Positions 12,458 to 49,175 of a DNA stretch of 64,000 nt are shown here, piece by piece. Below the pieces are notes generated by a model, which did not search any database, was not told where the DNA came from, and saw only the letters and a list, made by a program, of their open reading frames with translations. The translations under genes were made by a program, and so were the position numbers. Each line of letters starts with the position of its first letter. Position 1 is the first letter of the stretch. The DNA is from Mayamaea pseudoterrestris (lineage: Eukaryota): positions 124,001-188,000 of the forward strand of contig BROI01000005.1 in the NCBI GenBank assembly GCA_027923505.1, written 5' to 3'.

Positions 12458-13611
12458 ATGCGGCAGCAGCCTTGCGTCTCGCTGCTCAGCGTCTTGTTTC
12501 TCATTCATCAACAGCAGTTTAAATTACGTCGACAAGTGCACGCAGCAGACACTCGTATACAAGTTGCCTTTCAAGACTGTAATTCTATTCCAAGCAGCAG
12601 CAACAGCAATCATCAACGACCCATTGAAGCATCAAGTCCATCTCCAGAAACAATAAAAATCATGCGTTCCGCTTGGCACTGCCACGGCCGCAACCAGCGC
12701 GAGCTGGTGCAAAACTTGATGGAAGCCAACATTATTCGACACTCACAAGTCGCCCAAATCATGTCAATGGTGGATCGCAAGTACTACTTGCCCAAGCTGT
12801 CGTCGCTCTTTGGCGGTGATGCGAGTGCGGCGCTCTATCCATACGTTGATGCGCCGCAGAGTATTGGACATGGACAAACCATATCGGGTGAGTATTGATC
12901 ATGTGTGCAATTGTGGATGCAACTGTGAATGCAGGAAATATGCTTCATTGCTAACGTTCACCTGCTGCTTTTTCCATGACAGCCCCTCACATGCACGCTC
13001 ACGTACTGGAAGAGATTGTTCCTCACTTGCTTCCCGTCACGGACGATGAAGACTCGCCTGCTGCCAGCAATGATGATGAATCATCCATGCTGCAGCCTGT
13101 CAAGATTTTGGACGTTGGCTGCGGATCAGGCTACTTGACGGCGTGCTTTGGTCGTTTGGTGCACACTTCACCGCCATTGACGCCGAACAGCATCTTGGGC
13201 CGACCCGGCAAGGTGTTTGGCGTGGACATTTACCCGGAACTGGTCGCTCGATCCAAGCAAAACATTCAGTCGGGGCCAGACAAAGAGCTACTGGAGGCCG
13301 GCACGATTCAACTTATGATTGCGAACGGATGGAAGGGACTACCGAACGAGGCGCCCTTTGACGCCATTCACGTTGGAGCAGCGGCGGAGGAGCTCCCCAC
13401 GGCGCTGGCAATGCAGTTGAAAGTGGGTGGCGTGCTGATTGTACCGGTGGGACCACAGGGGGAGGCGCAAGTGCTGTACAAGGTGGAGCGAGTCAAGCAG
13501 CAGCATGAATATGACGCAAGGGAAGAGCCAGATGGTGCGTTTGATCCGTCGGATTATCGAATCAAGCAGCTGCTGGGTGTTCAATATGTGCCATTGGTTA
13601 AAGAGCTTTGA
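12458..13611 (+). CDS. PCMT: Protein-L-isoaspartate O-methyltransferase, copy 1; intron 12888-12982; second Met at 12662
   Basis: PQSIGHGQTIS|APHMH, LDVGCGSGYL, APFDAIHVGAA, LKVGGVLIVPVG, VQYVPL. Confidence 0.95.
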
Positions 13612-13845
13612 AGTACGTAGAAAATCATTAGTAATGGGTCCATTCTGCATGCGAGGTCGTGTACATGTTTGATCAAATATTTAGTGGATTCTCATACATG
13701 TACATAAAACTTTACAACGAATGCACGTACTAACGTACATTGAAAATTTGAGAGCGTTTTAGATTGATCACGGGCGGCGGCACATTGACTTCGTCATGGC
13801 AAGTCGTTTGATGAAATTGATAAGTCTTGTTAGTGATCCGTTCAA

Positions 13846-14955
13846 TCAATTCATTTCATCAAAATTCATATCATCGTCATCGAGATCAAACTCTTTGAAG
13901 AAATCTTCATCCACGCCAAGTAAATCATTGCCATCACCCGCCGCCATCATGCTTGCCGCCAGTGTTACATCGTCCACCATTTCTTGCTGTTGCTGCAAGT
14001 TAACGACTGGTTCTGGTCGATTCTTCTTGCTGGCAATTCCCTTTTTGGGTTTGGTAGCAGGTATATTTTCCGCTTCTAATCGCTTCTTTCGCTGTAGTTG
14101 CTGCTGCTCCTCCAACTGTTTCCTCTTGGCTTCCGCCGCTTCATTTTGTATCGCTAGTATATCCTCTGGCTTGAGCCATACTTCAGGATGCGCACTACAT
14201 ATTTGATCATCTGCATCAAACTGAATACCTTGCGGCTGCCGTCCATAGTCATCCATCCACGGCTCGTAGTTGACAATCTCCTCCGTCACCTCCTCCAGCA
14301 CCCGCGCCTGCGCATGACTACTGCTCGACGCACCCGCCTTTGGGATTTTCACCTTCTTCACCTTTTCGTCCTTGTGCAGCTGCCCCATGAGCTGCACCAG
14401 CTCCCGCTCCACCGCCGCCACGTTGCGCCGCGGCGGCGCAACGCGCTCATGCTCGCGCGCAGCAAACCGCCGCGCCACGACGCGATGCATCGGCGGCGTC
14501 ACGCCCGAGTGATAGTAGGACGGATATCCTTCAGTGGGTTGCTCCTGCGCCTCCTCGAGGGCCATGTCGTCTTCATACACGATGAGCATTTGCGCCACGT
14601 CGACGCTCTTGTAGTACATGGCGTGGTCGTGCGTCTTGTGTAGCTCGATGGGGCAGGGTAGATTGACGAGCGTGGCTGGATAGCGGGCGCCGTCGCAGCA
14701 AAACTCCCACAAGGTGCGATGGCGGGCCTCGGTTGGTTGGCACGTGACGCCTTCCAAGTCGAGGTAGGAGTCGGGAGTTAATGCTGGTGCTGCTGGAGTG
14801 TTGTTGTTGTTATTACTGTTAGCGTTGACGTTGGACGCTGCTGCTGCTGCTCGTTCCTCGCACTCCTTCATCTTGTCGCGGAGGCGAGCTTCGAGTCGAG
14901 GGACTAAAATGCGAAGAACAAGGGTTCGGTCGCGGACGGGTAGGCGGTCGCTCAT
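13846..14955 (-). CDS. TAF7: TFIID subunit TAF7 (TAFII55 N-terminal domain), copy 1
   Basis: YPATLVNLPCPIELHKTHD...YKSVDVAQML...HSGVTPPM..V..RRF matches TAFII55_N. Confidence 0.88.
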   Translation of the reverse strand: MSDRLPVRDRTLVLRILVPRLEARLRDKMKECEERAAAAASNVNANSNNNNNTPAAPALTPDSYLDLEGVTCQPTEARHRTLWEFCCDGARYPATLVNLPCPIELHKTHDHAMYYKSVDVAQMLIVYEDDMALEEAQEQPTEGYPSYYHSGVTPPMHRVVARRFAAREHERVAPPRRNVAAVERELVQLMGQLHKDEKVKKVKIPKAGASSSSHAQARVLEEVTEEIVNYEPWMDDYGRQPQGIQFDADDQICSAHPEVWLKPEDILAIQNEAAEAKRKQLEEQQQLQRKKRLEAENIPATKPKKGIASKKNRPEPVVNLQQQQEMVDDVTLAASMMAAGDGNDLLGVDEDFFKEFDLDDDDMNFDEMN

Positions 14956-15163
14956 TTTGATGCGTTAATGGAAGCTTGTAGATTGTAGCAGTCTCCTAGA
15001 AGCACGCTTGATTGAGCCATCCATGTTGCATGTTGTCGTGATCGATGTTTTGCAAGATTCATTCGTGTCGCAGTGGCAATGGCTATACCACTGCGACATT
15101 GTTTAGGTTATCGGCCGTCGCGGAGCCTGCGCGAATTTCGACGAACACATCACAAATTCCACC

Positions 15164-16181
15164 ATGGCGACGGTTTTTGCAACGCTCAAAGAGTATTCCG
15201 ATCGACTGACGGGAACGACTGGAAGCTTAGGTGTACGTGCTAACGATTGGCTCATATGGAAACGATTATTGTAACTCTGTAGGAGAGATTAGGAGAGGAG
15301 ATATCGTCAATCAAAGAATATCTCGTGTCAATGCATCGCATATCTGGCCTCATCTTTGAGACTTTCAATGTATTGCTCAACAGTATCTTGTTATTATAGC
15401 ACTCGTCGTTGGGGGCTACCTTTATACCAGCGCAAGTTTCATGTCGTCGCAGGAGAACAATCGCGTCGTTCTGTCGACAGACAAGAACGAAAACGACGAA
15501 AACAAGGAACCGCTACGCAACTTTACCACTACTCAACTCCAAAAATTTGATGGCAACAACGACCACCCAGTCTACATGTCTGTATCTGGCATTGTCTTTG
15601 ACGTTTCAAAAGGTCGCGACTTTTACGGTCCCGGTGGTCCCTACGAGAAATTTGCTGGCTGCGAGTGCGGCGTGGCCTTGGCGAAAATGAGTTTCGACGA
15701 GGAACATTTGAACGATTTTAATGGGATTGCGCAACTAAATTTTGGAGAAAAGGCGGAACTGGAGGGATGGATTGACAAGTTTACCAACTATCGAAACTAT
15801 CCAGTCAAGGGGAGATTGGTACCCGACTCGTTACTGCCGCCTGCCGATCATGTTTGGACGGCAAACGAACTAAAGTTGCATGACGGCACGCAGGAGATTC
15901 CAACCAACTACGCCGCTGCGCCCATTTACATTGGTGCCGGGACCAAGGTGTTTGACGTGAGTTTTGGTGGCGTGTCGTTCTATGGCGCTGGTGGACCTTA
16001 CCAAAAATTTGCCGGCAAGATTGTGAGTCGAGCGCTGGCGAAAATGAGTTTGGACGATGACGACCTCGTTTCAAACGATGTGAGTGACTTGACGGAGAAG
16101 CAGCTGGGGATTATGAATGACTGGATTAAAACGTTTGAGGAAAAGAAGAACTACCCAATTGTGGGTAGACTTGAAAAGTAG
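15164..16181 (+). CDS. Membrane steroid/heme-binding protein (MAPR family) with two tandem cytochrome b5-like domains, copy 1; intron 15233-15383
   Basis: N-terminal TM after splicing; two copies of VFDVS.G..FYG.GGPY.KFAG....ALAKMS and Y.IVGRL-type endings. Confidence 0.92.
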
Positions 16182-16209
16182 TGTAATGATATAGGTGTGC
16201 ATTTAGATT

Positions 16210-17043
16210 TTATACCGATAATATTTTGGCCGTCGCATCAGCGGATCGTGTCGAGGAAACACTATGGCTGCTGCCACTGCCCATTAAGTCATCCGTACTT
16301 TGTCGCATTTCTGGTACATTGGCATAGTCACCCGCAAAGGTGGCTGATGGCCTGCTACTGTTATTGTATCCGCTGCTCGTCGTGTACATTGGGTCGACCG
16401 TTCCCACTGGTTCGTACTGGTCCGCGTGCAGCTGCGATGAAAACTCCCGTCGCCCCACGGCCAGCAACAGGCAGGCGCAAAAGTTGACCCAAAAGACCAA
16501 GCCCGCCCACAGCCACACGCTGGTGGAGCGGTTGCAGTAGATGGGTGCGTCGCGACTGCTGCCGTTGTCGTGGAATCGTTCCGTGGTATTTTCGTGGCTG
16601 TCATATCCATCGCTCCGTCGATTACCACTTCCGTAGTAAGACTGCTTCGAGCAAGTTCCATATTTGAACGATTGCGACAAGACAAAGGACAGTATGGAGG
16701 CACCAATGGTAATGCCCAAAGCGACTCCCATGATGAAATCGTTCGGCGACAAGAAACTCAAGCTGGAGGAGAGTCTTCCGTTGTTCAAAATGGCCCACAC
16801 GGTGGCATTCTGCAGTATCAGAAAGAGTGACATCCATATCAAGGGAAGTGTATTGTTATTGCTGATTGATTGACTCCAGCAGGAGAGAAACAGAAACATG
16901 TTCAAAACGAATAGCAAGATCAGTAGGTGGTTCAAAATTTTGGCCATGGAATCCAAATGAAGGGCCGCGTAGGTTGTAACATCGCGGGGACAAAAGGATA
17001 AATTCTCCTCCAAACGATGTGGAAGCATGTTTCGTTGCATCAT
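16210..17043 (-). CDS. Uncharacterised 4-TM membrane protein, copy 1
   Basis: Four hydrophobic segments; the frame is conserved in copy 2 with only in-frame indels. Confidence 0.75.
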   Translation of the reverse strand: MMQRNMLPHRLEENLSFCPRDVTTYAALHLDSMAKILNHLLILLFVLNMFLFLSCWSQSISNNNTLPLIWMSLFLILQNATVWAILNNGRLSSSLSFLSPNDFIMGVALGITIGASILSFVLSQSFKYGTCSKQSYYGSGNRRSDGYDSHENTTERFHDNGSSRDAPIYCNRSTSVWLWAGLVFWVNFCACLLLAVGRREFSSQLHADQYEPVGTVDPMYTTSSGYNNSSRPSATFAGDYANVPEMRQSTDDLMGSGSSHSVSSTRSADATAKILSV

Positions 17044-17113
17044 GCTGTATTATTGTATATTGACTGTGAATGGAAGGGTAGATCAATCTGGTCGTCGATG
17101 CGAGTGATGTGTT

Positions 17114-17133
17114 GTGTCGTGTCGTGTCGTGTC
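17114..17133 (+). repeat. (GTGTC)4 microsatellite upstream of the 4-TM gene; reduced to one unit in copy 2
   Basis: gtgtcgtgtcgtgtcgtgtc seen directly. Confidence 0.8.
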
Positions 17134-17607
17134 GTTGTGAGTGGGTTTTCAATGGCTCACTTGTCAAATGTTTTTCTCGCTTGATACTTTGGGCAAGTCG
17201 TCTAATTCTTCCAGCAGATTCAACGCAACCTTTGCGGCTTTTAAGGCATTGTTTGAAAACCAAAGGAACTCTGGCAAGGCTTTTTTCCAACAAGTTCCTT
17301 TTTGCGTGGTCGTCGCTTGGTCGCTCATGTCGCACTGTTAGTAAAACGTTAATCTCAGCAATAAACTCACGGGATGACATCGATTGCCATGGCCTCGCTA
17401 CTTGACAATCAACCAAAATACCATTCATGATGCTATAGTAAGAGTCGTAAACAAAAGATAATCTTTATTCATGGCAACCAAAATGAAGATAGGTTGACTT
17501 AAAAATTCCAGCCCCAACAGGCCGCTCGCAAAACACCAAAATTCATGAACAAAGTATAGCACAGTTCTCGATATCGTCCAAACACAAAACAAAGTAAAAA
17601 TCTCTCT

Positions 17608-17680
17608 TTAGCCCGCAGCTTCCTCGGCGATGATTGGCTTTTCGTCCGCACGAACTTCCTCATCCTGCGTCGACTTTTTC
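17608..17680 (-). pseudogene. Orphan 3' fragment of the ammonium transporter (last ~23 codons, followed by its 3' UTR)
   Basis: Encodes KKSTQDEEVRADEKPIIAEEAAG*, matching the AMT C-terminus at 26592-26664; cut at the duplication junction. Confidence 0.92.
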
Positions 17681-17807
17681 CACCACGCCAGCCAGCGTGC
17701 GTTGCAGCGCGGGTGACGTACGATCGTGCCGCGCACACGACCCTCGAATCCATTCTTTTGGATCTCTGGTTCATCTTTCCGGCAACTGTACTTGCTTCGT
17801 CTCCACC

Positions 17808-19384
17808 ATGGCCTCTCTAAACGAACTCGTACCTCCCGGCGTCGTCACGGGCGACAATTTGCTGGTGCTCTTCAAGCATGCCCGCGACAATGGATACGCC
17901 ATTCCGGCGGTCAACTGCACATCGTAAGTGTTTTGAAAGTTGCTTTGGTGCGATTGTTGTTCGTTCGTTCGACAGCTGCTTGTTGAACTGTTGAACTATG
18001 GAAACTACTGCTTACGAGTATGTATGCGCAAGGGATCATTGTTTTTGGCTACATAAACCTGTAACGAGCGTGTGTCTCGTCATCCGTTCCACCATGCTGT
18101 TGCTGTAATATCCTGTTGCATTAACGGCCTGTTGCTTTACACTCTTTCATCAGTTCATCGACTGCCAACGCTTGTCTGGAAGCTGCCAAAAAGGCCAAGT
18201 CTCCCGTCATTATCCAAGTCTCCAATGGAGGTGGCGCCTTTCTGGCCGGAAAGGCTGTCAAGGATCCCAACGCTGCCGCCGTTGGGTCAGTGGCGCTGGC
18301 CATGCACATTCGCTCCGTCGCTGCCTACTACGGCATTCCAGTGGTGATTCACTCGGATCATTGCGCAAAAAAGGTATGATTACTGTTGCTGGATGCTGCA
18401 CCGATTCCTCCAAGTTTTATATGACTATATCTCACACAACAAGCCTATTATAGCTCCTTCCCTGGTTCGACGGCATGCTCGACGCCGACAAGGAATTCTT
18501 CGACAAGTACGGCGAGCCCTTGTTTGGATCGCACATGCTGGATCTCTCGGAGGAGCCCGATGAAGAAAACATTGCCATTTGCGTCGAGTACTTTAAAAAG
18601 ATGGCGCCCATGAAGATTTGGTTGGAAATGGAGATTGGTATTACGGGAGGCGAAGAAGACGGCGTCAACAACGAGGGTATTGACCCGGAGAAGCTGTACA
18701 CGTCTCCCGAGCAGGTTTACTCCGTCTACGAGTCGCTCTCCAAGATTTCGCCCATGTTTAGTATTGCGGCTGCCTTTGGAAACGTTCACGGCGTCTACAA
18801 ACCGGGCAACGTCAAGCTCAGCCCCGAGCGCCTTGGCCACCATCAGGCGCACACGAAGAAAATGATTGGTAGCGGCTTGGAAAAACCAATCTTTTTGGTC
18901 ATGCATGGAGGATCTGGTAGCACGGATGATGAAATCAAGACGGCCGTCAGCAATGGCGTCATCAAGATGAACATTGATACCGACACTCAATGGTAAGTTC
19001 GCATGATCCTTGGTATGATCGTCTGTCTGTCAGTCTCGTTTTCTGATTTATTTTCTGCCAATATTCAGGTCTTATTGGGATGGTTTGAGAATCTTTGAAA
19101 AAGAGAAGCGCGATTACTTGCAGGCGCAGATTGGAAATCCAACGGGAGCAGACAAGCCGAACAAGAAATTCTACGATCCGCGCGTCTGGATCCGCAAGGC
19201 CGAGGAGGCAATGGTGACCCGCGTTGAAACTTCCATGGATAAGCTGAATAGCAAGGGAACGTATGAACCAAAGACGGAGGGTGCGACGCCCCAGCTGGGA
19301 TCCCTCAAGAATCCTAATCCCATCACGTTGGTGTGCCTTGGTGCATTACTTGGGTCGGCGGTCATGCTCATCCTCAAGAAGTAA
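17808..19384 (+). CDS. FBA: Class II fructose-bisphosphate aldolase, copy 2 (3 introns)
   Basis: Nearly identical protein to copy 1 with the same intron positions and the same C-terminal tail. Confidence 0.96.
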
Positions 19385-19780
19385 GTCATAGCACTTGCAT
19401 AGTGCTTGTTTTTGCAGTTGAGACTGCTAACAGGAATGTCCATATTACCTGTTATATAGTATATTGACAACCACTCTCTCGGAGTTTATAAAAACGCAAG
19501 CGATTGTGCCTGTTGTTAGTACCGTGGTTGATGAATTGACGGAACTGGCGACGGAACTTTAGTTATTTGTTACTTGTGCCATGTCGTCTACGTATGCATC
19601 GTATAGTCAGGGATAATTTGCTGAATATAGTCGAAGGCAAGAAGCAATCACTTCAACCTGTTTTTCAAGTAACCATACCAGAGAAGCCTGGCAAAGAATA
19701 TAAAAGATGTATGAACGTAGCTATTTCCTAGCACGCAGCCCATTAAAAGACTATAAGACATTGCATTTGAGCCTCTGTCA

Positions 19781-20983
19781 CTAAGCCTGTCGAACATCTG
19801 CATGATTAATTTCAAAAATGGATTGTGAAGGCACGACATGCGTCACGTGCTCATTCTGCCGCGTTACGGTGAGCCGTGGCTGCCAGATACCACTTGAGCG
19901 CTGACTTGCATTGCTACTGCCTCCATATGACAAGGGCTCTAATCGACCATCGGAACCAATCGTAAAGAGTGATGGCACGCTCCCGCTACCACCACTAAAC
20001 GCCATGGCCAGCTGCCGCTGCTGCTGCTCATTTTCATGCTGCATCGCCGGCAAAACGTCGGTATATTCTTGCCGACAAATGGGGCAGTGTTGCTTCTTGC
20101 TGAGCCATCCAATGATGCATTCCGTGTGAAAGACGTGTGGGCAGTGCGAAAACCACGTGACGCGTTCGCCAGGTTCGTATTGCGACAAGCAAATGGCGCA
20201 CATGGAATTCACCGAGCGACCTATTGGTAATCTTAGTAGCAGTCGATTGGACTCCTCCATGCAGTCGTTCATGTCGTAGTCAATTAAATGTGGGTCGTTC
20301 GATCCGCTTTCAAGATCTGTGCGTGCGACTGGCGGCGGCGTATCATTACCAGTCGCCAGAGCGCCATCTTCTTCCGCTAGTTGCTCTTTCAATGCCAGAC
20401 GAGTCGTTGCATTCTCGTTTACATCATGCTGAGCCTCCGTATCGTCCACATCAACAGCAGAAAGATCCATCAAGTCATTTTCCGTAACAATCATACTCGT
20501 CGCCTGCAACGACTCTGCCAATACTTGTTTGCGCATGATTGCATTCGCTTCACTGTGCGCCTGCTGCGTCTGCGTCCAAGCGAACCAATGGTTACGCAGC
20601 TGCAGTTGCGTGGCAGCATGCTGCGCGGCGGCGCTGCGATCCATGGCGCGCCGCCGCCCAAAGGCGCAGCAGGCGGGAACGACGCAGCAAAGCAACAGAA
20701 ACAAGTACCATGCCAAGAATGCGACAAACTCGAATGCTTCATTGTCGGAGGAGTCGTTATTGTTGTTAGTGTTGGTGCCATTGTTGGTTGCGTTACTGCC
20801 ATTGTTACTGCTGTCAGTTTGGTTAAAGGTGCTGTCGTTGAATGCACCTGTCGCGTTTTCGCTGCCAATCTCCATCGTCGTGCTTTCATTCTGCTGACTA
20901 GCAGCGAAAGCTTGCATCAAAAAGGCTGCCAGCCAGCATATTTTTGCCAGCGAAACGTTTCGTTTCATCATTTTCATTGTCAA
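19781..20983 (-). CDS. Type I membrane RING-H2 E3 ligase, copy 2 (C-terminal tail ~26 aa shorter)
   Basis: RING-H2 intact; in-frame indel after PRLTVT relative to copy 1. Confidence 0.9.
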   Translation of the reverse strand: MTMKMMKRNVSLAKICWLAAFLMQAFAASQQNESTTMEIGSENATGAFNDSTFNQTDSSNNGSNATNNGTNTNNNNDSSDNEAFEFVAFLAWYLFLLLCCVVPACCAFGRRRAMDRSAAAQHAATQLQLRNHWFAWTQTQQAHSEANAIMRKQVLAESLQATSMIVTENDLMDLSAVDVDDTEAQHDVNENATTRLALKEQLAEEDGALATGNDTPPPVARTDLESGSNDPHLIDYDMNDCMEESNRLLLRLPIGRSVNSMCAICLSQYEPGERVTWFSHCPHVFHTECIIGWLSKKQHCPICRQEYTDVLPAMQHENEQQQRQLAMAFSGGSGSVPSLFTIGSDGRLEPLSYGGSSNASQRSSGIWQPRLTVTRQNEHVTHVVPSQSIFEINHADVRQA

Positions 20984-21481
20984 ATTCGATTTGACGTCGC
21001 AGATGATTGCCGAGAGGTGCGAAGAGTTGCAGTCGGTAAACTTTCAACGACTTTTTTATTACACTCAAGTCACTCAATGTTTTAACAGTTACAGAAATAG
21101 TTCGTGTACAAAAAGAGCAAAGGGTTTGAGCTTTCTCAGCAATCTCTGCTCTTGCTTTCACTTCATTGTGACGATGCTTTTGCAGCGGACTGTCGTGCCG
21201 CGCCGGCGCGCCATTTCCATGAGAAGTTTGGGCTTCCTCGGAACAGCTTTCTGGCGTTCCATATGTAGCGTTCCATTACCCCTGTCAGCCCAATATCGAA
21301 CGCTTGAGTAAGAAATCACTGACGCAGAAGGAACGAGTCACACATTCTCGGCATCGCTCCGGTTTTGATCTTCCTCATCGCTCATTGCCATGACACCCAT
21401 GGTTCGACGATTCGCAACTTCGCCTTGCATTGCCTTGCATTGCGCGTGAGAACATTGGATACACATTCGCATCACTACATC

Positions 21482-22637
21482 ATGCGGCAGCAGCCTTGCG
21501 TCTCGCTGCTCAGCGTCTTGTTTCTCATTCATCAACAGCAGTATCATTTTCGTCGCCAAGTGCACGCAGCAGACACTCGTGCACTACAACTTGCCTTTCA
21601 AGACTGCAATTCCATTCCAAGCAGCAATAACAATAGTCATCAACGACCCATTGAAGGAGATCCATCTCCAGAAACAGCAAAAATCATGCGTTCCGCTTGG
21701 CACTGCCACGGCCGCAACCAGCGCGAGCTCGTTCAAAACCTCATGGAAGCCAACATTATTCGACATTCACAAGTCGCCCAGGTCATGTCGTTGGTGGATC
21801 GCAAGTACTACTTGCCAAAGCTATCGTCGCTCTTTGGGGGTGATGCGAGTGCGGCGCTCTATCCATACGTCGATGCGCCGCAAAGTATTGGACATGGGCA
21901 AACCATATCGGGTGAGTATCGTGTGTATAATTGTGAATGCAAATGTAGAGACGTGGATGCGATTCATTGCTCACTTTTACATGCTGCTTGTTTCCTTGAC
22001 AGCCCCTCACATGCACGCTCACGTACTGGAAGAGATTGTTCCTCACTTGCTTCCAGTAACGGACGACGAAACAGACTCGCCTACTGCTGGCAATGACGAG
22101 TCATCCAAGATGGAGCCTGTCAAGATTTTGGACGTTGGCTGCGGATCAGGCTACTTGACGGCCTGCTTTGGTCGCTTGGTGCACACGTCACCGCCACTGA
22201 CGCCGACCAGCATACTGGGCCGACCCGGCAAGGTGTTTGGCGTGGACATTTATCCGGAACTGGTCGCGCGGTCCAAGCAAAACATTCAGTCGGGACCAGA
22301 CAAAGAGCTACTGGAGGCCGGCACGATTCAACTTATGATTGCGAACGGATGGAAGGGACTACCGAACGAGGCGCCCTTTGACGCCATTCACGTTGGAGCA
22401 GCGGCGGAGGAATTGCCCAAGGCGCTGGCAATGCAGTTGAAAGTAGGTGGCGTGCTGATTGTACCCGTTGGACCGCAGGGAGAGGCGCAAGTGCTGTACA
22501 AGGTGGAGCGAGTCAAGCAGCAGCAGCATGATGTGAATGACGCAAGGGAGGAGCCGGATGGTGCGTTTGATCCGTCGGATTATCGAATCAAGCAGCTGCT
22601 GGGTGTTCAATACGTGCCGCTGGTCAAAGAGCTTTGA
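21482..22637 (+). CDS. PCMT: Protein-L-isoaspartate O-methyltransferase, copy 2 (1 intron)
   Basis: Same motifs and intron position as copy 1. Confidence 0.95.
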
Positions 22638-22848
22638 ACGAATACATTGGCGATGGGTCCATTCTGCATGCGAGGTCGTTTACATGCTTGATTAAATATC
22701 CAGTGAATGCTCATACATTTACATGAATCTCTACAACGAATGCACTTATTGCCGTGCAAGCGTACATACATTGGAAAATTTGACGACGTTTAGAATCACG
22801 CAGCCACATACTTCGTCATGGCAAGAAATTATACAGTAAACCGTTCAA

Positions 22849-23952
22849 TCAATTCATTTCATCAAAATTCATATCATCGTCATCGAGATCAAACTCTTTG
22901 AAAAAGTCTTCATCCACGCCAAGTAGATCATTGCCATCACCCGCCGCCATCATGCTTGCCGCCAGCGTTACATCATCCACCATTTCTTGCTGCTGCTGCA
23001 AGTTAACGACAGGTTCTGGTCGATTCTTCTTGCTGGCAATTCCCTTTTTGGGTTTGGCAGCCGGTATATTTTCCGCGTCTTGTCGTTTCTTTCGCTGTAG
23101 TTGCTGTTGCTCCTCCAACTGTTTCCTCTTGGCTTCCGCCGCTTCATTCTGAATCGCTAGTATATCCTCCGGCTTGAGCCATACTTCAGGATGTGCACTA
23201 CATATTTGATCATCTGCATCAAACTGAACACCTTGCGGCTGCCGTCCATAGTCATCCATCCATGGCTCATAGTTGACAATCTCCTCCGTCACCTCCTCCA
23301 GCACGCGCGCCTGCGTATGACTCGACGACGTACCCGCCTTTGGAATCTTGACCTTTTTGACCTTTTCGTCCTTGTGCAGCTGCCCCATGAGTTGCACCAA
23401 CTCCCGCTCCACCGCCGCCACGTTGCGCCGCGGCGGCGCAATGCGCTCATGCTCGCGGGTTGCAAACCGCCGCTCCACGACGCGATGCATCGGCGGCGTC
23501 ACGCCCGAGTGATAGTAGGATGGATATCCGTCAGTGGGTTGCTCCTGCGCCTCCTCGAGGGCCATGTCGTCTTCATAGACAATCAGCATTTGCGCCACGT
23601 CGACGCTCTTGTAGTACATGGCGTGGTCGTGCGTCTTGTGTAGCTCGATGGGGCAGGGTAGATTGACGAGCGTGGCTGGATAGCGGGCGCCGTCGCAGCA
23701 AAATTCCCACAGGGTGCGATGGCGGGCCTCGGTCGGTTGGCACGTGACGCCTTCCAAGTCGAGGTAGGAGTCGGGAGTTGTTGCTGGTGCTGGTGCTGGA
23801 GTGTTGTTGTTGTTGTTGTTACTGTTGGATGATGCCGCTGCTGCTGCACGTTCCTCGCACTCCTTCATCTTGTCGCGGAGGCGAGCTTCGAGACGAGGGA
23901 CCAAAATGCGAAGGACAAGGGTTCGGTCGCGGACGGGTAAACGGTCGCTCAT
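22849..23952 (-). CDS. TAF7: TAF7, copy 2
   Basis: Intact 367 aa ORF, near-identical to copy 1. Confidence 0.88.
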   Translation of the reverse strand: MSDRLPVRDRTLVLRILVPRLEARLRDKMKECEERAAAAASSNSNNNNNNTPAPAPATTPDSYLDLEGVTCQPTEARHRTLWEFCCDGARYPATLVNLPCPIELHKTHDHAMYYKSVDVAQMLIVYEDDMALEEAQEQPTDGYPSYYHSGVTPPMHRVVERRFATREHERIAPPRRNVAAVERELVQLMGQLHKDEKVKKVKIPKAGTSSSHTQARVLEEVTEEIVNYEPWMDDYGRQPQGVQFDADDQICSAHPEVWLKPEDILAIQNEAAEAKRKQLEEQQQLQRKKRQDAENIPAAKPKKGIASKKNRPEPVVNLQQQQEMVDDVTLAASMMAAGDGNDLLGVDEDFFKEFDLDDDDMNFDEMN

Positions 23953-24135
23953 TTTGATGCATTAAGGAAAGCTTGTGGTACTGTGATCGAGCCATTCATG
24001 TTGCTTGTTGTCGCGATCATCAATGTTTTGCAGCTTTCATTCGTGTCGTAGCGGCAATGCGATACCACTACGACATTTCGTCAGGTTATCAGCCGCCGCG
24101 CGCGTGAATTTCGACGAACAAAACACAATTCCACC

Positions 24136-25153
24136 ATGGCGTCGATCTTTGAAACGCTCCACGAGTATTACGATCGACTAACGGGAACGACTGGAGGCTT
24201 AGGTGTACGTGCTAATGATTGACTGATATGAAAACGATGGTTAAACACTCTGTTGAAGAAAAATGGAGAGGAGATATCGTCAATCAAAGAGTTCATGCTG
24301 CATCGCATTATCGCATACCTCGCCTCATCTTTTTGATCCTCAACATATTGCGTTACAGTATCTTGTTATTCTGGCACTCGTCGCTGGGGGCTACCTTTAT
24401 ACGAGCGCAAGCTTCATGTCTTCGCAAGAACACAATCGCGTGGTTCTTTCGACTAGCAAGAAGGACGACACCGACAAGGAGCCACTGCGCAACTTTACCA
24501 TTACCCAACTCCAAAAATTCAACGGCACGAACGACCAACCAGTCTACTTGTCAGTGTCTGGCATTGTCTTTGACGTTTCGGACGGTCGCGACTTTTACGG
24601 TCCCGGTGGTCCCTACGAGAAGTTTGCCGGCTGCGAGTGCGGCGTGGCCTTGGCGAAAATGAGTTTCGACAGCGAGCATTTGAATGATTTTGATGGCATT
24701 GCGCAGTTGAATTTTGGAGAAAAGGCGGAACTAGAGGGGTGGATTGACAAGTTTACCAACTATCGAAGCTATCCAGTCAAGGGGAGATTGGTGCCAGACA
24801 AGTTACTGCCGCGTGCCGATCATATTTGGACGGCAGACGAATTGGCGTTGCATGACGGCACGCAGGAGATTCCAACCAACTACGCCGCTGCTCCCATTTA
24901 CATTGGCGCCGGGAACAAGGTGTTTGACATGAGTTTCGGTGGCGTGTCGTTCTATGGCGCTGGCGGACCCTACCAAAAGTTTGCCGGCAAGATTGTGAGT
25001 CGAGCGCTGGCGAAAATGAGTCTGGACGATGACGACCTCGTTTCAAACGATGTGAGTGACTTGACGGAGAAGCAGCTGGGGATTATGAATGACTGGATTA
25101 AAACGTTTGAGGAAAAGAAGAACTACCCAATTGTGGGTAGACTTGAAAAGTAG
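24136..25153 (+). CDS. Double cytochrome b5-like MAPR protein, copy 2 (1 intron)
   Basis: ATG at 24136 with the same GGT|GTACGT donor and CAG|TAT acceptor as copy 1. Confidence 0.92.
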
Positions 25154-25181
25154 TGTAATGATATAGGTGTGCATTTAGATT

Positions 25182-26027
25182 TTATACCGATAATATTTTG
25201 GCCGTCGCATCAGCGGATCGTGTCGAGGAAACACTATGGCTGCTGCCACTGCCCATTATATCGTCAGTACTTTGTCGAATCTCAGGTACATTGGCATAGT
25301 CACCCGCAAAGGTGGCTGATGGCCTGCTGCTACTGTTATTGTATCCGCCGCCACTATTCGTGTACATTGGATCCACCGTTCCCACTGGTTCGTACTGGTC
25401 CGCGTGGAGCTGCGACGACGAGGAAAACTCGCGCCGCCCCACGGCCAGCAAGAGGCAGGCGCAAAAGTTGACCCAAAAAACAAAGCCCGCCCACAGCCAC
25501 ACGCCAGTGGAGCGGTTGCAGTAACTTAATGGGTCGCGACTGCTGCTTTCGTGGAATCGTTCCGTGGTGTTTTCGTGACTATCATATCCATCGCTCCGTC
25601 GATTATCACTACCGTAGTAAGACTGCTTCGAGCAAGTTCCATACTTGAACGATTGCGACAAGACAAAGGACAGTATGGATGCACCAATGGTAATGCCCAA
25701 GGCGACTCCCATGATGAAATCGTTCGGCGCCAAAAAGCTAAAGTGGGAGGAGAGCCGTCCATTGTTCAAAATGGCCCAGACGGTAGCATTCTGCAGTATC
25801 AGAAAGAGTGACATCCATATCAAGGGAAGTGTATTGCTATTGCCACTGAATGATTGACTCCAGCAGGAGAAGAACAGAAACATGTTCAAAACGAACAGCA
25901 AGACCATTAGGTGATTCAAAATCTTGGCCATGGAATCCAAATGAAGGGCCGCGTAGGTTGTGACATCGCGGGGACAAAAGGATAAATTCTCCTCCAGGCG
26001 ATGTGGAAGCATGTTTCGTTGCATCAT
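25182..26027 (-). CDS. Uncharacterised 4-TM membrane protein, copy 2
   Basis: Intact 281 aa ORF colinear with copy 1. Confidence 0.75.
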   Translation of the reverse strand: MMQRNMLPHRLEENLSFCPRDVTTYAALHLDSMAKILNHLMVLLFVLNMFLFFSCWSQSFSGNSNTLPLIWMSLFLILQNATVWAILNNGRLSSHFSFLAPNDFIMGVALGITIGASILSFVLSQSFKYGTCSKQSYYGSDNRRSDGYDSHENTTERFHESSSRDPLSYCNRSTGVWLWAGFVFWVNFCACLLLAVGRREFSSSSQLHADQYEPVGTVDPMYTNSGGGYNNSSSRPSATFAGDYANVPEIRQSTDDIMGSGSSHSVSSTRSADATAKILSV

Positions 26028-26591
26028 ATTATTATATCGTGTACTGGAGGTGAATCAAGCTATGGTCGTCGAGTCGTCGATGCGAGATGCGAGTGATGTG
26101 TCGTTGTCGTTCTGATGAAGTTCTCAATGGCTCAATGGCGCAATGGTCAAATGTAATTTCACGCGAAATGATGATTGAATTTGGCAAGTCGTCTAATGCT
26201 TTCAGCGAATGCAATGTATCCTTTGCGGCTTAAAATACATTGTTTGTAATAACAAAGGAACTCTGGCAAGCACAACTCCATTTTCGTGGTCGCCGCTTGG
26301 TCGCGCGTGTCGCACTGCTAATAAAAAATTCTCAGCGGTTTTGGAAATAATCTCACGGGATGACATCGATTGCCATGGCCTCGCTACTTGACAATCAACC
26401 AAAATACCATTCATGATGCTATAGTAAGAGTCGTAAACAAAAGATAATCTTTATTCATGGCAACCAAAATGAAGATAGGTTGACTTAAAAATTCCAGCCC
26501 CAACAGGCCGCTCGCAAAACACCAAAATTCATGAACAAAGTATAGCACAGTTCTCGATATCGTCCAAACACAAAACAAAGTAAAAATCTCT

Positions 26592-28878
26592 CTAGCCCGC
26601 AGCTTCCTCGGCGACAATCGGCTTTTCGTCCGCACGAACTTCCTCATCCTGCGTCGACTTTTTCGACCTGTTGGACGAGTCCAAGGTGAGGCGGTGACGC
26701 GATGTGTTGAGCGACTCAATGGCGGCTTGCTCCACGGCCTGAATGTCGTAGGCTGGACCCTTGTGGCGACTAATGTCCATACCGGCAATTTCTTCGAGTG
26801 GATCGCAACGGTACCATCCCATGAAGGACAAAAAGTAGAAGAACGCTCCCATGACGGTGAAAGACCACGAAAAGATGAAGAGGCAAGCAATCAACTGACA
26901 GCCAAGGAGGGTAAAGTCACCCGATCCTTCGCCCCATTCGTAGAACCAACCGGCGTGTGAGCCAAGGCCTGGGTACGCCGCCGCCAAGAGGTCCGGAGAC
27001 GAGAAGAGTCCAGTCGCAATCATGCCCTGAAAAAAGGAACATCGTAAGATAAGTGAACGCTCGATACCCTCAGTCAGGCCAGTTTACAGAGCTGCAAACT
27101 GCCACTTACCCAAGCGCCTCCGACCATGTGCACCGGCACGGCGTCCACGGCTGATAAGCAATCAGAAATATCGTGAGTACAACGAGCAAGCGTTTTAAAG
27201 CATATATGTCACAGCAGTCCGGACGTACCGTCATCAAATCTTAATTTAAGCAATACTTTAGAACCCAGCACGTAGAAAATGCCAGCCAAAATTCCAATGA
27301 CGACGGCGGCCCAAGTCTGTACAGTCGCACAACCAGACGTAATGCTATAAAGGGTCGAAAACGAAAGCATGAGCAAATCATCGCTTTTAACGCCGACAAT
27401 CATTCACAAACTTACGCAACCAATCCAGTCAAGGAACCATTCATCGTGGCAACCACATCGTACGAGTAGATTCCAGTGTGGCGCAAATCAATGTATGAGC
27501 TAAAGGCCATGGCAGAAATGGCTCCCGCGCACGCCGAAAGTGTCGTGTTGACGGCAACAAGGCCTGCCAATGCACCACCAGCCTGCGACGCAACGTAGAG
27601 CACTGAACCGGGGTTGAAGCCGTACCTGTTAGAAAACGCAGTACAGAGATGTTTGTGAGATACAGACAAAAGTATTATACCTTCTCGCAATTGACAGCAA
27701 CGTACCATCCAAACCACAGAAGAAACTATCAAACAAAAGAGAGCAACGTATGACATGAGAATATTTCTCATCGAAACGGATCACGAATAGCAATGATACT
27801 ACTAACCGTTCCAAGGAACATGAGAGCGATTGAATGAGGCGTTATCTCAGCTGGTTCTTCGAGAAGATTGCCATCCTGGTCATGGAACCGACCAATGCGC
27901 GGACCGAGGATGAGTCCACCAACAAGCGCTGCAACTCCTCCAGTCATGTGAACGGCTGAAACGAGTGTGAATGATGAAACGTTAGGTTTGGCAATCAGTT
28001 TAACCGCTCAAATTTAAACAAATACTTCACTCACCTCCAGATCCAGCTAGGTCAATCGCTCCCGACCCAAACAGTGGTTCAGCCGCAAACGCACTGAGAA
28101 AGCCTTGCGTGGACCAGAGCGAATGGGCCGCCACTGGATAAACGAATCCAACCAAAAAGCTGGAATACATTAAGTACGCCTTCATTTGCGTACGTTCCGC
28201 AATCGTTCCAGCGACAATGCTGCTGACGGCGCACGCAAACGCAAATTGAAAGAACCAAAGCTCCATGGCAATGCCCTGATTAGTATTGGCAAAGAACTGG
28301 GTGTTTCCAATGAATGTTCTGATATAGCAAAAAGGAGTCATGTGTCAGGGCATGGTGTATAAAGCAGTGGCTGCTCTAACTGTACAGGCAACTTAGTTCA
28401 ACATACTTTTCCGGTCGCCCATCATCGCCTCCGTAGGCGAAGGCCCAACCAACGGCCCAGTACGCCAAGCCACCGCCGCAACTATCCAGCAAGTTCCAGA
28501 GGATAACGTTTCGAGTATTCTTGGCGCGAATGGATCCGGCGCAAAGCATGGCAAAGCCAGCCTGCATCATGAACACCAAGGCGCCACCAAAGAGGATGAA
28601 GAAACTATTGACGCCATCGGCAACATTCTGTGCGGCCGAAAGATTAGCCTGTAGTAATGATGCAAAATAAGAATACGGTTAATCATTAGTATAGGGACAG
28701 TACCTGCATTCTCTTTTAGAAGAAAATGGTTTCGTTATGCTTGCTGACTGATGCGCAGCGAACTGCATGCACTTACCTGCTCATTCTGATCCGAAACGCA
28801 TCCTAGCAACTCACTCAGCTGGCTCGACGTATCGGGAAACTGGGCGAGACAAGTCTCAAAGATGCTGCTTCCACTCAT
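26592..28878 (-). CDS. AMT1: Ammonium transporter AMT1-type, 9 exons: 28878-28777, 28648-28407, 28318-28035, 27955-27807, 27725-27706, 27625-27416, 27344-27229, 27150-27110, 27026-26592
   Basis: MQAGFAMLCAGSIRAKN, FFQFAFAC, GTIAER, DLAGSG|AVHMTGG, LWFG|WYGFNPGS, FDD|AVDAVPVHM. Both pore histidines are present and all 8 introns are GT-AG and in frame. Confidence 0.96.
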
Positions 28879-36759: not shown

Positions 36760-38418
<1,659 letters not shown>

Positions 38419-38670
38419 GTTGATTGAGCTGCAAGATTTGGCGTAAGGTAGTTTAAATCTACAGTAGACCTCTAGTTTGGTTTATACTACTTTAAAAGCT
38501 CCAATAACATAGAACAACATAGCTACCTTTCCATGACTTGCCATGTCAAGCGCGACAGCTTCATAAACTTCTCCGGTTCGGCAGAATCTGACCGGTTCTG
38601 ACGCAACCACGTGATTCTCCATGTCGCTCCTTGCTTTCTTTTGGCGTCATTCTCCAAGCATGTTACAACC

Positions 38671-45259: not shown

Positions 45260-45673
45260 TGTCAGAGAAAGGAGAAGTAAAAGAAAAATTTTTCAATCCT
45301 GTCGCTTTCTGCTGGGCGCAGTTCTTGTGTCTTGTGTGAAGAATGAACGAGTCTGACGACGAATGAGTCTCGTTATAAGTGAACGGCGACGGTGACGATT
45401 TGTAAACAGTGCCAGAACTGCAGCTTGCTTTTAAAGTTTGTTAATCAATCTAGTTGTGTGAATATATGAGCAAATGAAGCTTCCTTCATGTTCCAAACGA
45501 ATGAATGATGACGGCGCTTTGTCGACGCATTCATCATCATGGCGGACTTCGAAGGAACACGACTGCGAAATGTCGCATCGCGACCGATTGACTTATCGCC
45601 AAAACCGCGACGAGCCGTCTCTATCGCGCGAATTGTTGCAATCTTTGTTCCACTTGCTCGTCTCCAACTCGTA

Positions 45674-47776
45674 ATGAAGTCATTGCATGTCTTGTCTCTG
45701 AACTCACTAGTTTCCTTCATTGCCACTGGCATTACTCATGAAGGAGCCGAAGCATTCACGCTCGTTCCGCATTCTATAGGCCGACGATATCAGCAACCAC
45801 CATTTCGCGTCGGCTCCGTCTCCTCTACGTCATTACACAAGACCAAGAAGATATTCGTGCGTACAAGTAATGGAAGTCTCACGGACCATACAATCTCGAG
45901 TGAAAAAGCGTTCATCCTGTTTCGCCAAAAAATGGGTGCGGACCATGTCGTCGACGAACGCAACCACAATCCCGTTCACCTTTTCAAAGAACTCGTGAAT
46001 GGAAACGTTTACTCACTGGCATGACACCAATGGGCGAATGATGACTCGTCAAATGCAAGCTTACTGCAGCCGTATGAGGAACCTTCTGTTCGTTTCGACT
46101 ATGATTCACTTCCGTCGCTCTCGGATGTTCGTCCACTTATTCCGCTTCGCTTTGACAAGCCAAACAAGTTTGTCCGCCACAATGACTATCTAGAGTTGCT
46201 CTTTCAAGATATAAGCTCCCAGCTAGAGCAAGAGGGGCGCGTTCCCCCAATGTGTCTCGTGGGCTGCAGCCGCAGTGGCAAGACGGCGACTCTGGACGAA
46301 ATTGCCAATGGATTGCCAAGCTATTTTGCCGCCAATGGCAGGGAGCCAGTGACAATACTCTACGTTACCTTCAACGATTATTCATCCACGTTCCTATTTG
46401 ACCGGCATGATCCATTTCAGGCGCTTTGTCAACGTCTCGTGTTTGTTGCCAGTGAAGGAAACAATGGCGATCAACCGCCGTCATACTACATGGGTCGTTT
46501 CCAAACACTCCGCGGACAACACTACCAACACGATCCATCTGACGTTTGGAAATGGCTGGGCAACAATCGAGTGATTCTACTCATTGACGAGTTGAGTAAT
46601 TTGAGACTAACGTCAAACGATGAGTCCGATCTTGGAGCTTTTCTGCGCGACACCTTTCTTGACCTACCTGGCCGTTATCTCATTTTTACCTCGCACGTGC
46701 TAGGCGCAGTGGAGACCGTGTTGGATAACGTGGATAGCTCCGGAGGAAGCAGTCGAACGGTAATTGTGCAGCGTCTACCGATTGCTTTCGACTTGAATGA
46801 CGCCGTCCTTCACCTTGACCCTCGTATGCGTGGGCCTTGCCAAGCGTTGTACCACGGCCTTGTTCCAGGATTGATCTACGATCAGCGAGAACGACGGCAT
46901 GCAAACCTCAAGCAGAAAGCAGCCTTGAGAATTTTCAACTCGCGAGAGATGCATGACAAGGAAAAGTGGATCAAGTCTATTTTAAACTCCTTCGTTTCGG
47001 GTAATGGCGACAAGGTTCCTCCTGAACTCCACATTCTGCTTACAGCTATTCCACACGATACAGCCTATCCTCCAAGTAGGAATCTCGCCAAGATTTCTTG
47101 GGCACCGTCAATACTTCAGTGTGTCTTGCGGAATACGGAGCTGCAGGAGAAGAGCTGGCTTCTCGAAGCAAAGGAGAGCTTGGCATTGTTGTGCGACCGT
47201 TTAAAAGCGGCTGACGGACCATCGGTGAATGGTTACAAGTATTTATTTGCGATTGCCTACTTGTCCCGCAGCATTGCAGAACACCCATTTGGTGACGTAC
47301 TGCCCGCGGCGTGGTTCGATGAGCCCGGACTCCAAGTGCAATGGAACCCTTTCAATCTGTCGCTTATCGAAAGTCTGTCGTTCAACGACTCTGTCAAGTG
47401 GTGCGAGTTGGAAAGGAGTGTCAATGTCAAAGGTCCACAACCCACCATTGCAATCTTCTTTTCAGACTGCAAGTACTTTGAGAGATATGACTTGATTGCG
47501 CTGCTGATGAAGAATGACACCATTGTTGATCAGAGGGCGTTCCAGCTCACGCAAACATCAGCGAATGCGAGGTTGGACCCATTGGATGATTTCAAGGGGG
47601 AAAGCTACTTAGTCGAGGGCATTGCATTAGAAGAGATGTCTCGCAATGCACAGAAGTGGAATGTTATGAACGACGTTGATTGTGAAGGATATTTCGGCGT
47701 ATCGGGTAGGCATTGGACTCCAACAATGTGGAATCGGTTGAAGAAGACGTTCCGTAAAGCGAGAACAGAATCTTGA
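45674..47776 (+). pseudogene. Crinkler(CR)-like protein: presequence + Ubl-like header + P-loop NTPase + REase-like C-terminus; one in-frame TGA at 46022-46024
   Basis: ORFs 45539-46024 and 46196-47776 share a frame, and the 57 codons between them are open. Walker A GCSRSGKT, Walker B ILLIDE, C-terminal F..YD...FQL. Status (pseudogene, readthrough or intron) is unresolved. Confidence 0.6.
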
Positions 47777-47878
47777 GCAGCAGCGAGATTTGCATTAAAC
47801 AAGCCAGCACGCTAAAAGGAGGACATGTAAGGATGGCTGAGGAAGCGCAGCTGATCTGAGGAGCTGATTGCTCGTTTT

Positions 47879-47959
47879 CATCGTGCTGCGTCGAAAGTTC
47901 ACCATTGACGCATCGTGCTGCGTGCCAAGTTCACCAATGACGCATCGCGCTGCGACGAA
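47879..47959 (+). repeat. 32-bp tandem repeat, ~2.5 copies, each with an internal inverted repeat
   Basis: catcgtgctgcgtcgaaagttcaccattgacg / catcgtgctgcgtgccaagttcaccaatgacg / catcgcgctgcgacgaa. Confidence 0.85.
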
Positions 47960-48128
47960 CAAACGCCCCGTTTGGTATCGCACGTTAGTCTGGTGTTGTT
48001 AAACTACGTATAGTCGTTTGAGGTCATTGATGGAAGCGAACCTTGGCGCTGAGCGATTTTTTTAGCAGGCGGCAACTTTTGAAACCGTTACGACAGTTTC
48101 GGGCGAAAACCATCACGACGACACCACG

Positions 48129-49175
48129 ATGTTAACCATGCATAATGACGAGAACTCGAGAGGAATCATGAGACTGTCATATTCACTGTTGCTGCTGCTG
48201 AAACTAGTCATCACTGCGAATGCCTTTTCTGCCATGATTCATGACACTGAACGTCTTCACCGCCTCATGATTCTGGGCCACGGCCGCGTCGGTCGTAGGG
48301 TGGCCGATCTCGTTCAACAAGACAATCAGCAACGAGGCAATGGCAACAATGCCATGAAAATACTGGCAACCACGAGGAAACCAATTTCAACGAGTCCAGC
48401 GAGCGACAGTTCTGTGGAATTGGTGCCATTCGACCAAGCCGTCCATCATTTCGACTCGTGCTCCCACGTGTTGATATCCATGCCATTGGATGCGTTTGCC
48501 AATTATTTTGAGAGTAGCAGCAGCATACTGCAAGCCATGATGAATGCATCCAGCATTCGCTGGATTGGAGTCGTTTCGTCAACCAGTGTCTACGGCAATC
48601 ACAATGGCGCATGGGTGACGGAGGAGTCGCCGTGTTTCGACGGCAAGCCAAGCTACTTGCACGTCGAGCGATACTTGATGAAGCAACGCCCGAAACAAGT
48701 ATGCGTTTTTCGATGCGCCGGCATCTATGGAGAAAAGCAGTCCGCCTTGCATACCATTTGGAAGCAAGGTGCAGCAAAGGATGCGGCAAGGGCAGTGGAC
48801 GATGGTTCGGTGACGAATCGCATTCACGTCGACGACTTGGCGCAAGCTGTCTTTGTCGCTCTGCAGCGAGGAGCCACCGGCATTTACAACTTGTCGGACG
48901 ATGAACCTGCCTCGCGTCATGTCGTCATGCAGTATGCACGCGAGCTGTTCCAAAATATTGGAGTAACAGTAAAGTCAAAGTCGCCGCTGCCAGCGACAAG
49001 CACTAACGACGCATCAACCAACCGCAGCAGTCGCACGAGCCGTAGGCTATCTGACCAAAAGCGAGTCAGCAATCAAAAAATGCGAACGGATCTGTTGCCA
49101 GAGCTACAATTTCCAACCTACCGAGAGGGATTGCAAGCAATATTAAACGATCGGACCAATCCGTGGTGGAATTGA
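48129..49175 (+). CDS. Atypical SDR / NAD(P)-dependent epimerase-like protein (YeeZ-like), probably plastid-targeted
   Basis: Signal ending ANA-FSA; ILGHGRVG Rossmann motif; SSTSVYG, FRCAGIYG, NRIHVDDLA, YNLSDDEP, KRVSNQK, FPTYREGL. Confidence 0.9.
   Translation: MLTMHNDENSRGIMRLSYSLLLLLKLVITANAFSAMIHDTERLHRLMILGHGRVGRRVADLVQQDNQQRGNGNNAMKILATTRKPISTSPASDSSVELVPFDQAVHHFDSCSHVLISMPLDAFANYFESSSSILQAMMNASSIRWIGVVSSTSVYGNHNGAWVTEESPCFDGKPSYLHVERYLMKQRPKQVCVFRCAGIYGEKQSALHTIWKQGAAKDAARAVDDGSVTNRIHVDDLAQAVFVALQRGATGIYNLSDDEPASRHVVMQYARELFQNIGVTVKSKSPLPATSTNDASTNRSSRTSRRLSDQKRVSNQKMRTDLLPELQFPTYREGLQAILNDRTNPWWN

Follow-up and report, generated by a model that had tools for sequence, protein, structure and literature searches.

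The genome of the diatom Mayamaea pseudoterrestris carries a reading frame for a conflict-type NTPase/nuclease protein that is interrupted by a single in-frame TGA. What is this gene, and what does the stop mean? The frame runs on the forward strand from an ATG at 45674 to 47776 and comprises 700 codons with one internal stop. The premature TGA (46022-46024) is codon 117, in the context GCA-TGA-CAC, two residues past the last strand of an N-terminal header domain; the final stop, also TGA, is at 47774-47776. The frame is thereby divided into same-frame ORFs of 170 aa (45512-46024) and 583 aa (46025-47776). All 6 segments of the locus (presequence, header, linker, NTPase, helical part and C-terminus) had a coding-like score in this frame, with negative scores in the other two frames, and tblastn with the unbroken paralogue P0010 returned one piece running through the TGA (E 1.8e-62). 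Translation, coding scores and this alignment thus bear out the first-pass annotation, which had described a ~700-codon frame interrupted only at codon 117, and the sequence elements it had pointed to (AEA-FTL, Walker A, Walker B and F..YD...FQL) are all present in the translation. The part behind the stop is identical to P0002, an NCBI hypothetical protein of M. pseudoterrestris. The locus is flanked by unremarkable eukaryotic genes, which encode an alpha/beta hydrolase (upstream, opposite strand) and an NAD-dependent epimerase (downstream). An altered genetic code at the locus was rejected: TGA is a normal stop in the window (the whole 64-kb stretch of DNA analyzed), where it closes 11 of the 23 ORFs of at least 300 aa.

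To describe the encoded protein, we used an AlphaFold2 model of residues 55-700, computed with X at the stop and 75 sequences (pLDDT 91, pTM 0.87). The central part (46091..46900, plus strand) is predicted to be a P-loop NTPase of the STAND / Orc1-Cdc6 / TnsC-like AAA+ fold, with Walker A (GCSRSGKT, residues 197-204; 46262-46285) and Walker B (ILLIDE, residues 301-306; 46574-46591). Pfam AAA_22 matched with E 6e-4. In fold comparisons, STAND, Orc1/Cdc6 and TnsC ATPases matched with Z ~9 up to 12.4, including the plant NLR resistosome 6j5t (Z 12.3, rmsd 5.0, 274 aligned) and the ORC-Cdc6 complex 7jgr (Z 12.3, rmsd 3.8, 202 aligned), both with VIA. Foldseek returned an archaeal Cdc6/Orc1 match at E ~1e-5 (8e-6), and a search of viral folds gave AAA-type matches only, the best (E 3e-6) to a Sylvanvirus protein. 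The residues K203, T204, D305 and E306 are conserved in 73, 66, 74 and 67 of 74 relatives, respectively, and H341 and R361 also match family columns. Sequence and model thus agree on a P-loop NTPase of STAND/AAA+ type. A helical middle part follows (46901..47215), as judged by the secondary structure of the model.

The C-terminal segment (47216..47743) is a putative restriction-endonuclease-like (REase-like) domain with a degenerate site, as indicated by column counts in 74 relatives and by the helix-strand-strand-strand order of the model, in which this part is alpha/beta. The family pattern E...D...Q-x-K occurs in 57 of 72 gap-free rows. At these columns the locus has K522, D606, Q624 and T626; the catalytic set is thus incomplete, with Lys at a position that is Glu in 63 of 74 relatives, and Thr where 61 of 74 have Lys. 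Further changes at nuclease columns affect 518, 627 and 628. Fold searches, which covered model residues 93-445 and whose lists were filled by the NTPase, contained no PD-(D/E)xK nuclease fold among the matches listed. PDB sequence searches with family profiles gave no match below E 0.1, and NCBIfam gave none for the locus protein. In pattern and strand order the domain resembles PD-(D/E)xK nucleases, and we read its site as a putative one of this kind. The other haplotype of the locus (see below), read by hand, has a compensating indel at 47547/47550 and likewise no Lys at 626, and the nuclease site is also degenerate in the unbroken relatives P0022, P0004 and P0010. Judged by these residues, loss of the nuclease site is common in this branch and did not need the stop. 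With two nuclease positions that the family conserves already altered in the locus copy, silencing of a toxic gene by the TGA, as suggested earlier, is a poor fit.

The N-terminal header (residues 55-116; 45836..46021) has a beta-beta-alpha-beta-beta-beta, beta-grasp-like order in the AlphaFold2 model (strands 4-9, 15-20, 38-40, 45-47 and 58-61; pLDDT 89-97 per block). When the header was folded alone (single sequence, no alignment; pLDDT 70.7), the fold matches were weak (best Z 3.7, no chain with Z >=5) and included CIDE-N (Z 3.5, rmsd 3.3, 56 aligned), PB1 (Z 3.0), UBX and Ufm1. The Pfam Crinkler domain PF20147 had no match in the locus protein at E <=0.05, the LxLFLAK and HVLV motifs are absent from the header, and an ESM Atlas search with the header gave no usable match. 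Of the ubiquitin-like header initially proposed, the beta-grasp-like strand order holds, but the header is not the Pfam Crinkler domain; the modelled header is compatible with a small beta-grasp, the fold matches falling short of proof. Behind it lies a variable linker (46025..46090; pLDDT <60) that is rich in indels between the haplotypes, with a net difference of 9 nt. The stop sits in this low-confidence stretch, immediately after the header.

The locus gene, from a diatom, belongs to a large eukaryotic family of NTPase and restriction-endonuclease-like proteins. A profile search recovered 1154 clusters at E <=0.001 (150 listed). Among 30 relatives looked up, those named are from Mayamaea, Seminavis robusta, Nitzschia sp., a Bacillariaceae MAG and the aphelid Amoeboaphelidium. 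The ESM Atlas clusters are eukaryotic, and one, a 'Crinkler family protein' cluster (0.94), has PF20147 in 45% of its members. The Pfam Crinkler domain was found in 3 of the 30 relatives scanned, once above the cut-off. The N-termini of relatives are interchangeable, comprising the locus-type header once or twice, Crinkler-type headers, coiled-coil-like segments and others. In a FastTree of 72 NTPase-REase cores, the locus gene falls in a clade of 6 (support 100) nested in a clade of 22 (support 100), and the latter also holds proteins with Crinkler-type headers (P0019, P0027). Thus, the Crinkler/RHS-type architecture recognized in the first-pass annotation (header, NTPase, REase-like C-terminus) is upheld, together with kinship to Crinkler-header proteins. 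As a separate observation, P0090, P0103, P0108, L008 and L011 consist of a header and NTPase of ~400 aa without REase, and may be a nuclease-less subtype or mere truncations. In a metagenome collection, 369 pattern matches were obtained, none of them confirmed as a related locus, and there was no match to the DNA around the stop.

The NTPase query found 11 loci in the Mayamaea genome, the present one included. Four of them are open (L002, L004, L007, L009) and 7 are broken: the window locus, L003 and L010 (frameshifts), L005 (split by an LTR element), L006 (rearranged), and L008 and L011 (truncated). L003, the closest paralogue, has an AEA-F presequence and a complete E-D-QxK set, and its frame changes lie in the header-NTPase linker (L003:2319-2400, minus strand); its database model, P0003, starts behind the break. 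The L005 paralogue (L005/L015/L026/L027; G000:C3:1074900-1086000), which has a presequence and a complete nuclease motif, is interrupted within Walker A by a 9.9-kb LTR retrotransposon whose two LTRs (405 bp) are 99.75% identical. This break is a real event and could not have arisen as a polishing slip. L006 (G000:C31:207644-211420) is an inversion or rearrangement, with the NTPase half on the minus strand, the REase half on the plus strand and an integrase-like frame adjacent. L009 is nearly identical to L010, and the pair may be allelic. P0022 (700 aa), P0005, P0006 and P0010 share the build of the locus protein and are unbroken. For the 5' part of the locus, the assembly has neither a further copy nor a haplotig.

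We next consider the N-terminus, for which a plastid-like presequence had been suggested. It was scored with the published ASAFind matrix (PMC4329603, supplement sd4) and a home-made hydrophobicity filter in place of SignalP. Residues 1-27 (45674..45754) are predicted to form an ER signal peptide ending in AEA (KD 2.19 over 9 aa; cleavage score 7.53), and residues 28-54 (45755..45835) a Ser/Thr/Arg-rich, transit-peptide-like stretch with 0 acidic and 3 basic residues among its first 20. The best site is AEA-FTL, with Phe at +1 and a transit score of 4.52, above the published ASAFind cut-off of 2; note that any Phe after a hydrophobic stretch passes this cut-off. When the first 80 residues were shuffled 5000 times, 12 of the shuffled sequences reached this cleavage score. 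Among the genomic copies, L003 (7.63), L008 (5.36), L015 (5.10), L011 (5.06) and L004, which is P0010 (4.71), also encode a hydrophobic N-terminus and a Phe at +1. The presequence is absent from L007 and L009, L002 is without a Phe site and that of L006 is doubtful. Among 47 database relatives of at least 560 aa starting with Met, 5 had a cleavage score >5 and a transit score >2: P0005 (8.07, ASA-F), P0006, P0022, P0036 and P0023. The call for P0023 is probably false, since its site falls inside a Crinkler-type header.

The presequence occurs in 5 of the 6 proteins in the clade of the locus gene, a count that includes P0003 by its upstream frame; over the whole FastTree the label did not cluster significantly (a value as low was obtained in 35 of 500 shuffles). 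Automatic gene models conceal the trait: the presequence encoded in the upstream DNA is missing from both P0002 and P0003. The earlier suggestion can be extended: by matrix score the presequence is of the bipartite plastid type, it is shared by several unbroken relatives, and it is a trait of the subfamily. We consider it likely from these sequence features that presequence-bearing members of this Crinkler-RHS (CR) subfamily are imported into the plastid; for the locus protein itself, import is a prediction from the ASAFind-matrix score. As a side observation, the open paralogue L002 encodes, upstream of its annotated start, an Arg-rich N-terminal extension without acidic residues (L002:997-1320; MLRKLCFRL...), which by eye looks like a mitochondrial presequence.

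Evidence on the stop itself comes from four public runs, X1-X4, aligned to 45300-48100 as contigs only. These runs are possibly the source reads of the assembly and give it no independent support. X1 and X2 each contain two versions of the locus, at depths of 22.7 and 17.7 (X1) and 67 and 71 (X2), and the depth of the collapsed region 47579-47987 is 41.9 (X1) and 130 (X2). Of the 1213 positions in 46294-47506, one haplotype departs from the window at 58 and the other at 88, and hardly any position is in both sets. Therefore, the alleles are ~12% apart and the window mixes both. This divergence extends across 45354-47550, that is, most of the gene and upstream sequence, and no difference separates the haplotypes in the final 200 coding bases or the 3' flank; in 45582-45769 one haplotype is covered. 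The heterogeneity reported for M. pseudoterrestris is 2.97% (PMC9724779, section 3.1).

Two contigs from both X1 and X2 cover 45920-46276. One is gap-free (357 nt) and has 6 letters different from the window. The other (348 nt) has 43 other letters and 9 gap letters, 46021-46022 among the gaps, which makes the second haplotype three codons shorter and, as aligned, free of this TGA; its aligned letters at 46023-46024 are G and A. Among the 40 differences listed of 242, a list headed by differences common to both haplotypes, there is no letter of 46022-46024 and none of the 6 different letters of the 357-nt contig. The first haplotype likely carries the TGA. The error at 46022 that the first-pass annotation named as refuting its reading falls into two cases: a plain sequencing error is unlikely, because any letter that neither haplotype has would come at the head of the list, whereas a chimeric codon is possible. 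A protein database search with 119 residues around the stop found no fragment of either haplotype.

The window also contains a ~9-kb tandem duplication (8577-17684 and 17678-26668; 88.6-91.6% identity) with a RING-finger and TAFII55 gene per copy. Its divergence is near that of the haplotypes at the Crinkler-type locus, and it may represent both alleles assembled in tandem or a true duplication. Five 228-bp tandem repeats of 86-89% identity occupy 37275-38412, within ORFs 37249-38418 (plus strand) and 37264-38481 (minus strand). At the locus, the sole splice seen in runs X1-X4 is antisense: a GT-AG intron of 91 nt across the NTPase region (46577..46667, minus strand), seen weakly in one X4 contig of depth 2. 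It reads AG/GTAGGT ... TAG on the minus strand, with a strong donor, and X4 is without an RNA record. The transcript may belong to the alpha/beta hydrolase gene as a long leader, or it may be an independent RNA. A look-up of RNA datasets containing the locus listed none, a result that does not bear on its expression.

On this evidence we think it fairly probable that the TGA at 46022-46024 is a real, recent nonsense change, that is, a null allele at one of two very divergent alleles. We favor this reading because 7 of the 11 loci are broken, one of them by an LTR retrotransposon. There is precedent in RiCRN3, a CRN pseudogene with a premature stop (PMC6131194).

The alternative that survives best, although we regard it as unlikely, is that the stop is an artefact of a collapsed-diploid consensus, codon 117 being a chimera of two alleles that differ by indels and are both truly open. 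The species assembly is a consensus of Nanopore reads that was polished in several rounds and purged of haplotigs (PMC9724779, section 2.3). The mixing of haplotypes in the window, the unlisted positions of the 6 differences in the gap-free contig that spans the stop, and the G and A of the other haplotype with 9 gap letters close by would all fit such an origin, and the frameshift of L003 in the same linker could be a similar slip. However, the window keeps its own letters at 46028-46029 and has none of the other haplotype's gaps, which indicates that the consensus tracks one haplotype through the linker. Moreover, contig and window agree with 0 differences in 45354-45498 and 45819-45947, frames of 1842, 1352 and 740 aa near the locus are without a stop, and the retrotransposon insertion shows that at least one paralogue was broken by a real event.

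A very unlikely alternative is an ordinary gene with the stop inside an intron, at 45995-46069, at 46007-46069 as in P0002, or at 46019-46069 as a 51-nt GC-AG intron. CTGCAG at 46064-46069 is a good acceptor, and P0002 joins ..VNGN to PYEE.., skipping the stop with an implied intron of 63 nt; however, this model also leaves out the presequence and takes its start from a tiny exon upstream, as is typical of automatic models around a stop. All GT donors upstream of the stop lie at or before 46007, so any GT-AG intron would delete the last strand of the header, which has a pLDDT >90 and whose motif L..G..Y.L was found by pattern search in 10 of 12 relatives. The GC-AG variant would leave the header intact but is otherwise without support. 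Of the 6 consensus letters of a donor site, GTGAAT has 4 and GTTTAC has 2. The 75-nt intron proposed in the first-pass annotation (GT 45995...AG 46069) is in frame, but it is 1 of 27 in-frame GT-AG pairs spanning the stop, removes the conserved strand and uses the weak GTGAAT donor, whose +3 letter (45997) is C in the other haplotype. Left unspliced, the linker measures 28 residues from Tyr to Phe, against 11-32 in the seven unbroken relatives with both ends placed, and an X3 contig spans 45918-46107 gap-free (depth 2.9; X3 is without an RNA record).

UGA followed by C is a leak-prone stop context, and here it lies exactly at a domain boundary. Leaky readthrough, which had been considered earlier, or selenocysteine insertion could meter out small amounts of a full-length toxic protein. 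We regard this as extremely unlikely: when paralogues were compared at codon 117, none of those aligned had the stop, which is also absent from the aligned relatives and from the other haplotype. There is no RNA structure behind the stop (z +0.96) and no Rfam match, SECIS included, in 45300-48300, and codon 117 is in the linker and not at a Cys column. With a degenerate nuclease site, there is perhaps little toxicity to limit.

Equally hard to credit is a selected truncation, in which a stable header-only mini-protein in the plastid would damp full-length family members as a decoy or antidote. The position of the stop two residues after the last header strand, the break of L003 in the same linker, and the 14 allele differences listed for the header (7 synonymous, 7 non-synonymous, 0 stops) are compatible with it. 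However, the linker is the most mutable part, and breaks gather there by chance; the downstream frame has stayed open for 583 codons, which argues for a young stop; and none of the 4 genomic matches to an N-terminal query is a stand-alone header gene.

We therefore return to the null allele as the preferred reading. The locus would be one copy of a fast-turnover diatom CR family with a plastid presequence, a small header, a STAND/Cdc6-like NTPase and a PD-(D/E)xK-like domain. Unbroken members would first be taken into the ER and from there into the plastid by means of their Phe-motif transit peptide. By analogy with the family, ATP-driven oligomerization on DNA or a ligand may switch the C-terminal domain. 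The locus copy, with its degenerate nuclease site, may bind rather than cut, or may be inactive. The TGA allele would yield at most a 116-residue precursor (signal, transit and header) or a decaying mRNA, and the other allele would be without this stop. The first Met behind the stop, at which reinitiation could occur, is residue 193, which belongs to the NTPase and shortly precedes Walker A.

These elements can be joined into a broader proposal, which we regard as a long shot. A plastid CR branch, with L002 perhaps mitochondrial, would police or bias organelle DNA; the ~12% divergence, four times the genome average, would be kept by balancing selection between a full-length and a header-only allele; the header-only plastid protein would restrain the family; and the spliced antisense RNA would be a further brake. 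Such a two-allele system as a whole is much less likely than plastid import of the subfamily alone. The stop itself is of little consequence, and the lasting lead is the presequence. If the presequences work, DNA-directed conflict proteins, known from nuclei and from host-pathogen fights, act in the secondary plastid of a free-living alga, and would be candidates either for a defence of the organelle against DNA that invades it or for a control on how plastids are inherited in diatom crosses.

How does the locus compare with known systems? Its NTPase shares the fold of STAND, Orc1/Cdc6, TnsC and MuB AAA+ ATPases (Z 9-12) at 8-17% identity. In contrast to these, it has no identified winged-helix DNA reader or repeat sensor, and a C-terminal REase-like domain stands in their place. 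With diatom plastid proteins bearing ASAFAP presequences (Gruber et al. 2015, PMC4329603) it shares the A-x-A signal end, the +1 Phe and a transit score above the cut-off, but its cargo is a conflict-type NTPase/nuclease protein and its import is at present a prediction.

The closest likeness is to the CR proteins of Zhang et al. 2016, in which a header, P-loop NTPase and helical part are followed by an REase-like domain, the C-terminus found most often in CR proteins (as reviewed in PMC5289972; see also PMC11342252). The locus family shares with them the architecture, swappable headers, many broken copies and free-living eukaryotic hosts. It differs in that the locus header is shorter (62 residues, no Pfam Crinkler match), that it is preceded by a predicted signal peptide and Phe-motif transit peptide, and that the nuclease site of the locus copy is degenerate. 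The account of CRN headers in PMC5289972 rules out signal peptides and describes a hydrophobic region in one header type only. In the open literature we found no description of diatom or plastid-targeted CR proteins; the supplements of Zhang et al. 2016, which lie outside this scope, may list diatom members or signal peptides, and the Crinklers described in bioRxiv 2025.10.10.681168 belong to an oomycete parasite. What appears to be new, as predicted from sequence, is a CR subfamily in which plastid-type presequences occur together with a small, as yet unnamed header. The CRN effectors of oomycetes and fungi (LxLFLAK / PF20147) are linked to the locus gene by the Crinkler-type headers of relatives in the clade of 22. 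However, the locus header has neither LxLFLAK nor HVLV, its host is a free-living diatom, and its predicted destination is not a host nucleus but the diatom's own plastid.
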